Positions 50,445-53,830 of a stretch of 54,854 bases of DNA are shown here, piece after piece. The notes beneath the pieces were generated by a model that saw nothing but the letters and a program-made list of their open reading frames with translations, was not told the origin of the DNA and made no database searches. The position numbers were made by a program, and so were the translations under genes. The DNA comes from a virus (Duplodnaviria; Caudoviricetes). The stretch lies in IMG/VR virus record IMGVR_UViG_3300048066_000293, positions 1 to 54,854 of that record. The stretch is one strand, 5' to 3'. The stretch's first letter is position 1. Each line of letters begins with the position of its first letter.

Positions 50445-51308
50445 ATGCAAGAAACTGTCGACTTTGAAGATATAAGAAAACTATTTGACGACACATGGGA
50501 CGTTGGATATCTTAGTCCTGAACATTTATTACAATGCGCACATTCACCAGTTAAGAATAAATTTCATGTGTATGGTGTAGACTACACAAATAATACACAC
50601 TTTAAAAATCTATTCAATTCGATAGTACTAGTAAAAACAGGCCATACATGGGATTACAGCCATTACGACCAAGCCAAAGACATTATGTCAAATAGCGGCA
50701 TCGTTGGTTGGTATCCTTCTTACACTAATTACAAACAGGCAGTAATACATGCAGGACTAGGTGTTCGAGCAAAAAACAGTCTTGTTTATAGTTTCAAGTT
50801 TGGATTTGATTGTCATATATGCATGATAAGTTTCCAACCTACTATTGTAAATTATCCTGATAGAAGTAAAAAACGTAACTACGGACTTTGGAAACATTGC
50901 GAAGGTTGTGATGATTGTATTGTTAATTGTCCTGCAAAAGCAATACACTATGATGAAAAAGAACCTCCGTGGATTGATTCAGGAGCATGTGAAAATTTTA
51001 TATTTTTTGGTAAAGATGAAAATGTTCCAAATGTTATTAACTATTGGCATAAAAATGTACATCCTGAAATACCACAGCAAGTAATTGATAATATCAAAAC
51101 TGTAAAAGATATGAAGGACACAATAGGAGATATCAAATGGGACACAAACGGCTATAGTTACGATGGCAATGTTACCCGTAAAGATGGTGAAATAGTTTAT
51201 GTACCGCACTGTAGAGAATGTACAAGTCAACCACGGTGTAGTAAATGGGAAGGAAACTATCCTTATGATGGATCAGGCCCCATAGAAAAGATTAGGATCG
51301 TAAAATGA
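50445..51308 (+). CDS. QueG/reductive-dehalogenase-like 4Fe-4S protein
   Basis: YKQAVIHAGLG..AKNSL....FG, CEGCDDCIVNCPAKAI, C, CREC...C. Confidence 0.7.
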   Translation: MQETVDFEDIRKLFDDTWDVGYLSPEHLLQCAHSPVKNKFHVYGVDYTNNTHFKNLFNSIVLVKTGHTWDYSHYDQAKDIMSNSGIVGWYPSYTNYKQAVIHAGLGVRAKNSLVYSFKFGFDCHICMISFQPTIVNYPDRSKKRNYGLWKHCEGCDDCIVNCPAKAIHYDEKEPPWIDSGACENFIFFGKDENVPNVINYWHKNVHPEIPQQVIDNIKTVKDMKDTIGDIKWDTNGYSYDGNVTRKDGEIVYVPHCRECTSQPRCSKWEGNYPYDGSGPIEKIRIVK

Positions 51309-51911: not shown

Positions 51912-52151
51912 AGGTAGACAAATATATCAAACTGTGTTATAGTATAACATAACAATTAGGGAGATAGATATGACTACATTTGAAAAGATTGAATTTGTTG
52001 TTGGTTTATCGTGTTTAGGACTTCTCCTATCACTATAAGCGAATACTCACAAACGTAGTATTGCTTTTATATTTTTGGTGCATTGACGAAGATCCAGAAA
52101 TGTGTAGACTAAAAAAGAAAGGTGAACAAACTTCTACTATTGAAATAGAGG

Positions 52152-52182
52152 TTGACATCTAGTATTACTTATGTTATAAATA
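52152..52182 (+). promoter_or_regulatory. tmRNA promoter: sigma70 site overlapping a full TATAAATA late box
   Basis: TTGACA 52152-52157, N17, TATAAATA 52175-52182. Confidence 0.8.
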
Positions 52183-52186
52183 GTAT

Positions 52187-52571
52187 TGTAACGTTGAAGC
52201 AATTCAAACGGCATACAGGACCCGGGGGCGGTACCCGGCAGCTCCACCATAAGCACATTTGGAAACACAATGAAGACACGTATTAAAATGCAAGGCGGCG
52301 ATGAGTTTGATGCTCTAAGCAAGAAGGCTAAAAATTACTATCATTGGAAACCAGGTGAACGCAAGAAGATTAAGCGTGGTTATAACAAAAGACTTCGCAA
52401 GTGTGCTTATGATGGGGCTGAAATAGGATCGACTGGTGTTTAATAGGAGAGTGGAGTTGCCCGGATGTAAGCTCGGTTAACGCGAACAAACTTAATAATT
52501 GCAAACGCAAATTATTCATTAGCAGCCTAAGGGCAGCTACGAGGTAGTTAGACCTTGTTACCAAACATAGC
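52187..52571 (+). ncRNA. ssrA: Circularly permuted two-piece tmRNA (acceptor piece about 52187-52249; coding piece from 52414; tag ANANYSLAA)
   Basis: T-arm CCGGG-GGCGGTA-CCCGG then CAGCTCCACCA, upstream of GGGGCTGAAATAGGATCGAC; G3-U70 pair; tag frame 52501-52530; outer ends approximate. Confidence 0.95.
52270..52443 (+). CDS. 57-aa basic protein encoded in the tmRNA intervening segment
   Basis: MKTRIKMQGGDEFDALSKKAKNYYHWKPGERKKIKRGYNKRLRKCAYDGAEIGSTGV; hand-translated, below the ORF-track cutoff. Confidence 0.6.
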   Translation: MKTRIKMQGGDEFDALSKKAKNYYHWKPGERKKIKRGYNKRLRKCAYDGAEIGSTGV

Positions 52572-52600
52572 AGAAAAGCATCTTCGGATGCTTTTCTTTT
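52572..52600 (+). terminator. Intrinsic terminator after tmRNA
   Basis: AGAAAAGCATC-TTCG-GATGCTTTTCTTTT. Confidence 0.9.
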
Positions 52601-52691
52601 ATCTGCTACGTTTTAGCGCAGTTATAATACTTGACTTTTGGCTAAAATCGTGCTAAATTAATATACACACATAGACAGAAAGGACTCTACT

Positions 52692-53208: not shown

Positions 53209-53417
53209 TACCTAAAGAAACAGCACAAAAAACAGCAGAACATACCTTCACAGGTTTTATGAACTGGACAAAATACACAGTATACGGCTCGCTTGCTTTT
53301 TTCTTAGCAGTAGCAAGTTGTAATTTTGGCGTAGAAGACGGACCTAATAGAACAGGTTCGCAGTATGACGGGAGTGCGTATGCTCCTATGAATCTTAACG
53401 TAAAGGATAACAAATGA
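53205..53417 (+). CDS. aa3-type cytochrome c oxidase subunit IV-like peptide (start MIPKE)
   Basis: AEHTFTGFMNW followed by a TM helix, resembling the E.TF.GF motif of alphaproteobacterial CoxIV. Confidence 0.5.
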   Translation: MIPKETAQKTAEHTFTGFMNWTKYTVYGSLAFFLAVASCNFGVEDGPNRTGSQYDGSAYAPMNLNVKDNK

Positions 53418-53830
53418 GATTAACATTAGCAGCAATTTTAATTGCAATTGGTATGGGCACTGCTCATGCAGAAGATATGACCATTGACATGTTAAACAAG
53501 CGTGACGATGGTGCAAAGATGGTTTATTCACAAGACATTGCACGTATTGATGTAGGCGATACAATTACATGGACACCAGAGGATAAAGGACACAATGTAG
53601 AATTTATTGCAGGTCCAGACGGATGGGACGCACCACGTAAATCAAAACTATCAAAAGAAGTTGCGATTACATTTGATACACCAGGCGTATATCTCTATCA
53701 ATGCACACCACACAAGTCAATGGGCATGATTGCTATTGTCGTTGTAGGTGACGGAGACAATGATGTATCCAAAGCTAAAGTAAAAGGCAAATCAAAGAAA
53801 AAATTAAAAGCGTTATTGGCTGAGCTATGA
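53414..53830 (+). CDS. Pseudoazurin (blue copper protein)
   Basis: Signal peptide AHA-E; MLNK; GHNVE; YQCTPHKSMGM copper ligands. Confidence 0.92.
   Translation: MRLTLAAILIAIGMGTAHAEDMTIDMLNKRDDGAKMVYSQDIARIDVGDTITWTPEDKGHNVEFIAGPDGWDAPRKSKLSKEVAITFDTPGVYLYQCTPHKSMGMIAIVVVGDGDNDVSKAKVKGKSKKKLKALLAEL

Follow-up and report, generated by a model that had tools for sequence, protein, structure and literature searches.

In the window analyzed here, the whole 54,854 nucleotides (nt) of IMG/VR record IMGVR_UViG_3300048066_000293, a 57-codon open reading frame (ORF) lies in the intervening segment of a two-piece (permuted) transfer-messenger RNA (tmRNA) gene, that is, in the part of the precursor that is predicted to be cut away as the tmRNA matures. 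The locus raises the question of whether such a frame is a gene and, if it is, how a protein could be made from RNA that is discarded. A first-pass annotation of the sequence proposed that processing turns the ORF into a non-stop message whose product is tagged by its own tmRNA, and that this could act as a built-in sensor of trans-translation or a feedback loop on it. The record is a viral fragment of 54.9 kb with an estimated completeness of 16%, and the viral origin of IMG/VR contigs is a prediction. All coordinates given below are on the plus strand of the window.

The two-piece tmRNA gene and its nested reading frame

ARAGORN calls a permuted tmRNA with the tag ANANYSLAA at 52153-52621, and two Rfam models match the same gene above their gathering thresholds: RF04321 (tmRNA_permuted) with 108.5 bits (gathering 47) at 52188-52530, covering model positions 1-213, and RF01849 (alpha_tmRNA) with 86.8 bits (gathering 50), covering model positions 1-355 in an alignment that reaches 52585. 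The tmRNA match was repeated on the whole record (E = 6.6e-24). The acceptor piece (52188-52249, model positions 1-63 of RF04321) comprises the T-arm, the 3' half of the acceptor stem and an encoded CCA at 52247-52249, and its 3' end is placed at 52249 by the Rfam alignments (...CUCCACCA / ...GGCAGCUCCACCA). The coding piece, whose 3' limit is approximate (52414-52571; ARAGORN and Rfam), starts as GGGGCUGAAAUAGGAUCGAC at 52414, the mature 5' G and predicted RNase P site, and contains the tag ORF at 52501-52530, which starts with alanine and ends in LAA and a stop according to ARAGORN. The Rfam structure line is satisfied through the T-arm and the 7-bp acceptor stem, in which the third pair, G52416-U52243, is the G-U of alanine identity. 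On its Rfam scores, LAA-ending tag, G3-U pair and encoded CCA, the tmRNA gene of the window is intact.

Between the CCA and the GGGG that opens the coding piece, the Rfam alignment leaves an unaligned insert of 164 nt (52250-52413), which bears out the extent first assigned to the intervening segment. This segment consists of a stem and a loop that holds the ORF. Its ends extend the acceptor stem into the long helix that had been described: a 5' arm at 52239-52261, in which the acceptor-stem strand is followed by ACCA and the initial 12 nt of the segment, faces a 3' arm at 52398-52420. A repeat search recovered the two 23-nt arms with 87% Watson-Crick pairing; by direct reading 22 of 23 positions pair when G-U is counted, leaving a single C-A mismatch. 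The 23-bp helix appears in both the minimum-free-energy and the centroid fold of the 360-nt precursor 52186-52545.

The ORF runs from ATG 52270 to TAA 52441-52443 and encodes 57 amino acids (aa), MKTRIKMQGGDEFDALSKKAKNYYHWKPGERKKIKRGYNKRLRKCAYDGAEIGSTGV, of which 16 are K or R by direct count, in keeping with the basic composition noted at first reading. Its conserved core (codons 1-44) fills the loop, and the stem together with the initial 27 nt of mature tmRNA sequence supplies its tail (codons 45-57). Codons 43-51 (R K C A Y D G A E) are at the same time the 3' arm of the helix. The mature 5' G is the first base of codon 49 and the TAA begins 27 nt past it, and the last nine codons and the stop therefore lie inside the mature coding piece.

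The nested frame as a member of a phage protein family

Sequence comparison identifies the ORF at 52270-52443 as a real gene that belongs to phrog_16066. IMG/VR, scanned by back-translation, yielded 16 loci. Eight of these (L001-L008, type I hereafter) have the nested arrangement of the window with a 164-nt spacer; Rfam detects a tmRNA in all eight, and ARAGORN found it in two (L006 and L008) and missed it in L001-L005 and L007. Six others (L009-L014) are free-standing genes of 53-59 aa without a tmRNA, located downstream of the large terminase and a 127-aa gene (L009), downstream of MetK (L011), after a MazG-like ORF within a 10-gene tRNA array (L012/L013) and upstream of a methyltransferase gene (L014). 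The phrog_16066 profile matches three of the four free-standing copies scanned with E values of 2e-9 to 4e-6 (L011 reaches only 0.084), and matches the window protein, P0001, with E = 0.0018 over residues 10-46. A family profile (A3) matches the window at 52270-52425 with E = 3.1e-29.

The homologues that the first-pass annotation had called for are numerous. An eight-member profile matches 1232 of 1453 candidate proteins at E <=0.001, mostly proteins of 51-57 aa from marine metagenomes that are unnamed or labelled 'hypothetical'. Family members share the core motif G-D-E-[YF]-D-A-L ... W ... G ... K-K-I-K-R-x-Y-N-K-R-x-R-K; 12 columns are invariant across 65 members, and the window copy keeps all 12. 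Typical members are 49-57 aa long and reach their own stop 7-14 codons past R-x-R-K; free-standing copies span 48-63 aa, have their own stops and often follow a GGGAG site. An 80-locus family set comprises 65 free-standing loci, 12 nested loci and 3 without the motif, and CCACCA was found upstream of none of 43 further free-standing loci. The window copy is no stand-alone gene, being nested and ending inside the tmRNA: it keeps the core motif of typical members, and its 13-residue tail is supplied by the stem and the tmRNA, so that it differs in arrangement and not in homology. We considered that the ORF might bring its own stem and rejected this, since free-standing members are not surrounded by inverted repeats like the tmRNA stem; the stem is thus a feature of the tmRNA gene rather than of the ORF.

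In a family tree of 143 rows and 40 columns, the smallest clade holding all nested rows also contains free rows, and 84 of 139 branches are unsupported, so that one capture is not separable from several. A tblastn search with P0001 found no match among phage isolates and hence no cultured relative, and in a blastn search of the locus the isolates matched only over short parts of the acceptor piece, the matching phages being those of Rhodobacter, Ruegeria and Phaeobacter.

Codon-level comparison indicates that the nested copies are under purifying selection. Between the window and L002 the proportion of non-synonymous differences (pN) is 0.038 and that of synonymous differences (pS) 0.162, and within the core these values are 0.023 and 0.203. 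Third positions account for 8 of the 13 variable columns in the core of the nested copies, and more divergent nested pairs have pN/pS of ~0.1-0.4. Family membership and selection together bear out the proposal that the ORF in the removed segment is protein-coding. Purifying selection implies that a working protein is made, which fits translation from an uncut precursor better than obligatory tagging and degradation.

One reading of the locus would nevertheless leave the ORF unexpressed, in which case the spacer would owe its conservation solely to its RNA or to recent insertion, and the frame would be a relic. The cassette is 93-99% alike between contigs, which leaves little time for decay, the ribosome-binding site of the window copy is weak, and in some close pairs pN equals or exceeds pS. 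Against these points stand the family-profile match, the retention of the 12 family-invariant residues, the third-position bias in the core and the finding that divergent nested forms stay open, both a second form seen in DNA (type II, below) and metagenome clusters that have nested-type tails and ~70% aa identity to P0001. An ATG-started ORF of at least 57 aa also arises in only 32 of 10,000 mononucleotide shuffles of the spacer (0.3%), in which the longest ORF has a median of 18 aa. We therefore regard a relic as very improbable.

A structured slot in viral tmRNA genes

The comparison of intervening segments across related phages that had been suggested, carried out here with Rfam and sequence patterns, revealed the same slot with varied content. 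A scan of viral sequences for the acceptor-piece pattern gave at least 119 stretches; together with the loci from the peptide scan, 114 have both tmRNA landmarks. Among the matches listed, spacer length in these 114 loci ranges from 5 to 266 nt, and spacers of at least 100 nt occur in 33 of 114, or in 27 of 107 when six peptide-found loci are left out. All 38 viral loci checked against Rfam scored above gathering as tmRNA (18 of 18 that bear cassettes and 20 of 20 others with long spacers). A typical spacer stem, among the matches listed, reads UAAACACAUU ... AGUGUGCUUAUGAU, followed by GGGG. For the 79 unique viral spacers of at least 25 nt in the same matches, 87.4% of stem pairs are canonical in register compared to 31-58% when the strands are slid by 1-3 positions, with several pair types at most stem positions. 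The viral spacer is thus a conserved, covarying stem with a hypervariable loop.

Loops of at least 100 nt often hold an ORF that starts 13-24 nt past the CCA behind AGGAG, GGAG, AAGGA or GAGG, and an AAGGA site forms part of the paired 5' strand in 5 of 14 cassettes. The viral loci among the matches listed contain ~12 different spacer ORFs counting the window family. The ~11 others encode 21-75 aa and include hydrophobic products of 21 (L066), 34 (L046) and 35 aa (L124), Cys-rich products of 62 (L103/L123/L122) and 75 aa (L115), and products of 34 (L084), 35 (L019/L131), 36 (L077/L127), 41 (L064/L074), 54 (L132) and 63 aa (L038/L073). A PHROG scan of 10 of these other cassette ORFs gave only two weak matches (E ~0.005). 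Between L038 and L073 there are 8 synonymous and no non-synonymous changes, and pN/pS is 0.10 for L064 and L074 and 0.30 for L103 and L122. These comparisons support coding in the L038, L064 and L103 families; for the remaining cassette ORFs the evidence is the open frame and its ribosome-binding site. The L103 and L038 families behave like the window family in that most of their members are free-standing elsewhere: of the 80 L103-family loci, both landmarks mark 17 as nested, CCACCA alone is present in 7 and neither landmark in 56, and the corresponding numbers for the 49 loci of the L038 family are 7, 4 and 38.

Other loops lack an ORF. In 20 mid-length spacers of this kind no known RNA family was found inside the spacer at the Rfam gathering threshold. 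Some ORF-less loops of 60-110 nt share conserved stretches; L021 and L099, for example, both contain GTAAGTC ... GG.TCGCAACCTTG.GCAAC. Conserved loops such as these may be novel structured RNAs.

The content of the slot differs between phages and bacteria. The same acceptor-piece pattern was found in 116 alphaproteobacterial genomes, whose spacers measure 3-83 nt, never reach 100 nt and contain no credible ORF. The description of the intervening segment as normally short and non-coding accordingly holds for the bacteria in this sample, within which an ORF-bearing spacer is specific to phages.

Comparison of spacers with their flanks indicates that cassettes have been exchanged between divergent tmRNA genes. 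The 164-nt spacers of L001-L008 are 92.7-99.4% identical to that of the window; their flanks are 72.6-90.3% identical over 62 nt upstream and 62.9-82.8% over 116 nt downstream, and their tags differ too. Conversely, L074, L067/L117, L100/L130, L116 and L122 are 87-94% identical to the window downstream, yet have different spacers: 150 nt with another ORF in L074, 29 nt in L067/L117, 65 nt in L100/L130, 83 nt in L116 and 205 nt with another ORF in L122. The blocks of identity end within the acceptor stem, whose pairs covary between hosts. Recombination via the conserved sequences that flank the loop would be the simplest route of exchange.

Reading frames that cross the predicted RNase P site

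If RNase P cuts the precursor at 52413/52414 before the ORF is translated, a non-stop mRNA follows logically, and it is from this point that the first-pass annotation argued. The outcome for any cassette depends on its phase: the stops offered are a UGA ending 1 nt before the cut in one phase, a UAG ending 13 nt past it in another and none for at least 30 nt in the third. In the nine type I loci (the window and L001-L008) the stops end 30-108 nt past the 5' G. Four further nested loci (L347, L349, L350 and L355; type II) have spacers of 151-153 nt, score 75-104 bits with Rfam and are about one base shorter near the stem; in three of these the frame closes with the UAG that ends 13 nt past the 5' G, and that of L347 stays open beyond it. 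Thus 13 of 13 nested loci of the window family read past the cut in two phases, and the excised spacer would be stop-less in each. The condition that had been named as refuting a non-stop message, homologues that all stop before the RNase P site, is not what the nested copies show. The other cassettes of the slot are divided differently. L124, L064/L074, L115, L066 and all 7 nested members of the L038 family have their own stops 11-15 nt before the cut (11-12 nt in the L038 family), L077, L132 and all 17 nested members of the L103 family end at the UGA 1 nt before it, and L046 and L019 use the UAG ending 13 nt past it. Reading past the cut, as all nested copies of the window family do, is not a property of the slot.

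These observations bear on the interpretation that the ORF is a programmed non-stop message, in which the RNase P cut sets the 3' end of the mRNA, the product is tagged and degraded, and the balance between full-length and tagged protein reports on, or feeds back to, trans-translation or tmRNA maturation. Besides the 13 nested loci, the interpretation has in its favour that among the 121 best protein clusters the tails of 53 are translated from the 5' end of the tmRNA (51 recognized by pattern, P0005 and P0015 on inspection). It would also be served by P0038 and P0046, described below, whose ORFs run in frame into the tag, and by three clusters with tRNA-like tails that would likewise cross an RNase P site. 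The stops before the cut in the L103 and L038 families and in L064, L115, L124, L066, L077 and L132 point the other way: with other cassettes ending ahead of the cut, a dedicated sensor loop is unsupported. In addition, most family members stand alone and end at ordinary stops, the core is under purifying selection, which argues for a stable working protein, the tails past the core are no better conserved than the tmRNA itself, and types I and II, about one base apart near the stem, may share one capture, which would leave few independent events. What stands of the original proposal is thus the stop-less nature of the excised spacer in the window family; a purpose built on it we consider unlikely. 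Were it true, the phage would gain a read-out or timer of tmRNA maturation and of host rescue capacity, and the hairpin loop of the phage pre-tmRNA would act as a platform for expressing cargo that tRNA-type processing either releases or silences.

Two sets of protein clusters extend the range of frame endings. In P0038 and P0046 the ORF continues in frame through the 5' part of the tmRNA into the tag and ends ...ANENFALAA or ...ANNNFALAA, and their full-length products would thus themselves carry the degradation tag. In P0051, P0056 and P0093, which belong to a nested-type subclade, the C-terminal tails resemble translated tRNA genes (for example ...GVAQLVERNLAKVKVESSSLF), and P0051 retains a 'KCSYD' stretch like the tail encoded by the tmRNA stem. 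No full-length P0051 locus was recovered from the viral scan, which returned free-standing family members and tRNA matches, or from one metagenome scan, which was swamped by tRNA. One interpretation of such tails is that the gene has more than once come to lie directly ahead of an RNase P site without a stop of its own, at the tmRNA 5' end in two phases and apparently at two tRNA genes, and that a race between ribosome and RNase P together with trans-translation sets the amount and lifetime of the protein. This broader version of a non-stop message also seems improbable to us.

The same locations could be explained if the protein acted on tmRNA or tRNA, as a basic RNA-binding factor that aids or blocks processing, charging or SmpB binding. 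Its K and R content would suit such a role, as would the presence of members nested in tmRNA genes, in the tRNA array of L012/L013 and apparently running into tRNA genes (P0051, P0056 and P0093). Most of the family, however, shows no such association. Of the 43 further free-standing loci, 39 have no ARAGORN call within ~2 kb; among the remaining four, the matches of L300 and L301 are translations of tRNA, and the tRNAs of L259 are at least ~660 nt away. CCACCA is absent upstream of all 43, and the neighbours described above vary (large terminase, MetK, methyltransferase). Unrelated hydrophobic or Cys-rich proteins occupy the same slot, and searches of Pfam, PDB sequences and a protein atlas offered no clue to fold or family. 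A direct role in tmRNA or tRNA biology is, on this evidence, quite unlikely.

Transcription and a proposed route of expression

A promoter-like site, TTGACA (52152-52157) and TATAAA (52175-52180) with a 17-nt spacer, is apparent by direct reading; its 3' end lies ~7 nt upstream of the start of the Rfam tmRNA match. Our consensus scan accepts only T as the sixth base of the second hexamer and does not list this site; it gave other upstream candidates at 52046-52073 and 52083-52110. A terminator scan found an intrinsic-terminator-like hairpin of 11 pairs followed by a T run at 52572-52601. No separate promoter for the ORF was seen, and the ORF is probably transcribed together with the tmRNA.

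Metatranscriptome contigs from two studies carry the acceptor piece, spacer and coding piece unbroken with 0-2 differences. Matches in X1 (52096-52544, 0 differences), X2 (52011-52543) and X3 (52113-52529) come from the same study, and record 13 in X4 (52235-52449, 0 differences) comes from the second. Contigs that join all three parts would fit a detectable precursor. Within the stretch compared, the neighbouring genes have no contig cover in X1 or X2; gaps in cover in X1, X2 and X4 prove nothing. Separately, a contig in X4 with a depth of ~3064 matches the acceptor and coding pieces with 21 other letters in place of the spacer (joint 52249/52411), and looks like an abundant related tmRNA precursor with a short spacer, or its gene.

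We hold, with moderate confidence, that the locus is a functional two-piece tmRNA gene with a captured small phage gene that is translated from the uncut precursor. Since the content of the loop is cut out during maturation, insertions would be tolerated there, making the loop a swappable cassette slot in which small genes could ride free on the tmRNA promoter. Packing in this slot would be tight: the ribosome-binding site abuts the 5' strand of the stem or sits within it, the core of the protein fills the loop, and the reading frame continues through the 3' strand of the stem into the mature tmRNA up to the first stop. The protein would be made on an uncut and probably nascent precursor, with initiation before the 3' strand is synthesized; the position of the ribosome-binding site next to or within the 5' strand fits a start made on a helix that is still open. 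Elongating ribosomes would melt the helix together with the acceptor stem and terminate, after which the RNA would fold again and RNase P and 3' trimming would complete its maturation. A spacer RNA that is translated once RNase P has cut would be stop-less and a substrate for trans-translation, as a side effect of the packing and not its purpose. In the window family, cassettes that cross the cut are under selection; a mechanism common to the slot must therefore let ribosomes reach the stop, and this requires that the precursor be translated uncut.

Several observations weigh against this account. The substitutions that separate nested copies are few, at most ~15 per pair, and some close pairs have pN at or above pS (0.043 and 0.021, respectively, for the window and L007). 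The ribosome-binding site of the window copy is weak (GGAA), and three relatives have GGAG and a GTG start. A Pfam scan of the protein gave sub-threshold matches only (best E 0.04-0.06), a PDB sequence-profile search gave a single chance-level match (E = 0.015), and the protein atlas returned solely 'hypothetical protein' clusters of Uroviricota. The RNase P and 3' processing sites are predicted, and translation is deduced from sequence features. Contigs from RNA libraries may come from contaminating DNA and are uninformative on RNA ends, and those found here begin upstream of the promoter that we favour. Finally, a pure side effect does not predict that all nested copies of the window family, in two phases, cross the RNase P site.

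Relation to known systems

Work on two-piece tmRNA genes dates back to 2000 and has treated the intervening segment as a short, discardable linker. In Alphaproteobacteria, the OM43 phage Melnitz and pelagimyophages these genes have the order seen in the window, with the acceptor piece and CCA followed by the intervening segment and the tag-coding piece. The difference from the two-piece genes of the 116 bacterial genomes, with their short spacers, is that the window has a 164-nt spacer with a conserved protein gene that ends in the mature RNA. According to the accessible text of PMC9004378, two-piece tmRNA genes occur in marine myophages, and 53 of 133 unique phage tmRNAs are two-piece, 50 of these 53 coming from marine or aquatic phages; the accessible text of PMC3985003 names RNase P and tRNase Z as the probable processing enzymes of the two-piece precursor. 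Neither of these texts mentions a protein-coding ORF within the spacer. The accessible text of a 2025 database paper (PMC11915505) notes that a tRNA-Ala gene and a repetitive element occur within permuted-tmRNA intervening sequences and that group I introns of tmRNA genes carry endonuclease genes; it does not mention protein genes in the intervening sequence. Our full-text literature searches, with subscription papers and supplements outside their reach, returned no report of protein genes in this segment.

Group I introns of tmRNA with homing endonucleases likewise place cargo in a removed part where insertion is tolerated. In the window, by contrast, the cargo would be removed by tRNA-type end processing and not by splicing, the ORF overlaps the mature RNA, and spacer cargo in general consists of small proteins of 21-75 aa without an endonuclease signature. 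An intron-borne ORF was rejected for this locus: Rfam scans returned only tmRNA and tRNA, and no Pfam endonuclease domain was found. SgrS/SgrT and RNAIII/delta-haemolysin are dual-function RNAs, each a structured or regulatory RNA that is also the mRNA of a small protein. The window resembles them in joining a structured functional RNA and a small ORF on one transcript, and differs in that its two functions would be split by cleavage, the ORF in the discarded part borrowing its last 10 codons from the retained part. The PeSL cassettes of T4-type phages are mobile small-gene cassettes flanked by stem-loops. As in these, small phage ORFs appear to be shuffled between genomes within stem-forming conserved sequences; unlike these, the bounding stem in the window is an extension of the tmRNA acceptor stem, and free-standing family members have no such repeats. 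Cargo in the removed part of a structural-RNA gene is known; what sets this case apart is cargo without an intron, drawn from swappable small-gene families, with a frame that overlaps the mature RNA.

The record also encodes NrdA, NrdB and tail-fibre-like proteins, as well as two tRNAs called by ARAGORN. Just upstream of the tmRNA gene, a 22-codon hydrophobic ORF (MTTFEKIEFVVGLSCLGLLLSL; 51970-52038), which is below the length of the ORF list, lies behind GGGAG. Farther off are a 287-aa Cys-rich ORF (50445-51308) and a 138-aa ORF with a signal-like N-terminus (53414-53830), neither of which has a PHROG match at E <=1e-5. A motif in the latter tentatively recalls small blue copper proteins.

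Implications

For annotation, the locus illustrates two pitfalls, namely that gene callers extend ORFs of this kind into tmRNA and that ARAGORN can miss a permuted tmRNA. As a further practical point, the slot may offer small genes a natural safe harbour for expression from phage genomes. For the biology of marine phages, what has been treated as a linker would be a structured slot that captures small genes of several unrelated families, whose cargo is selected and exchanged. The pre-tmRNA would then be bifunctional, part messenger and part precursor of a structural RNA. In the window family, termination of translation and maturation of the RNA would compete for the same nucleotides, which makes interference between processing and translation testable on a single RNA.

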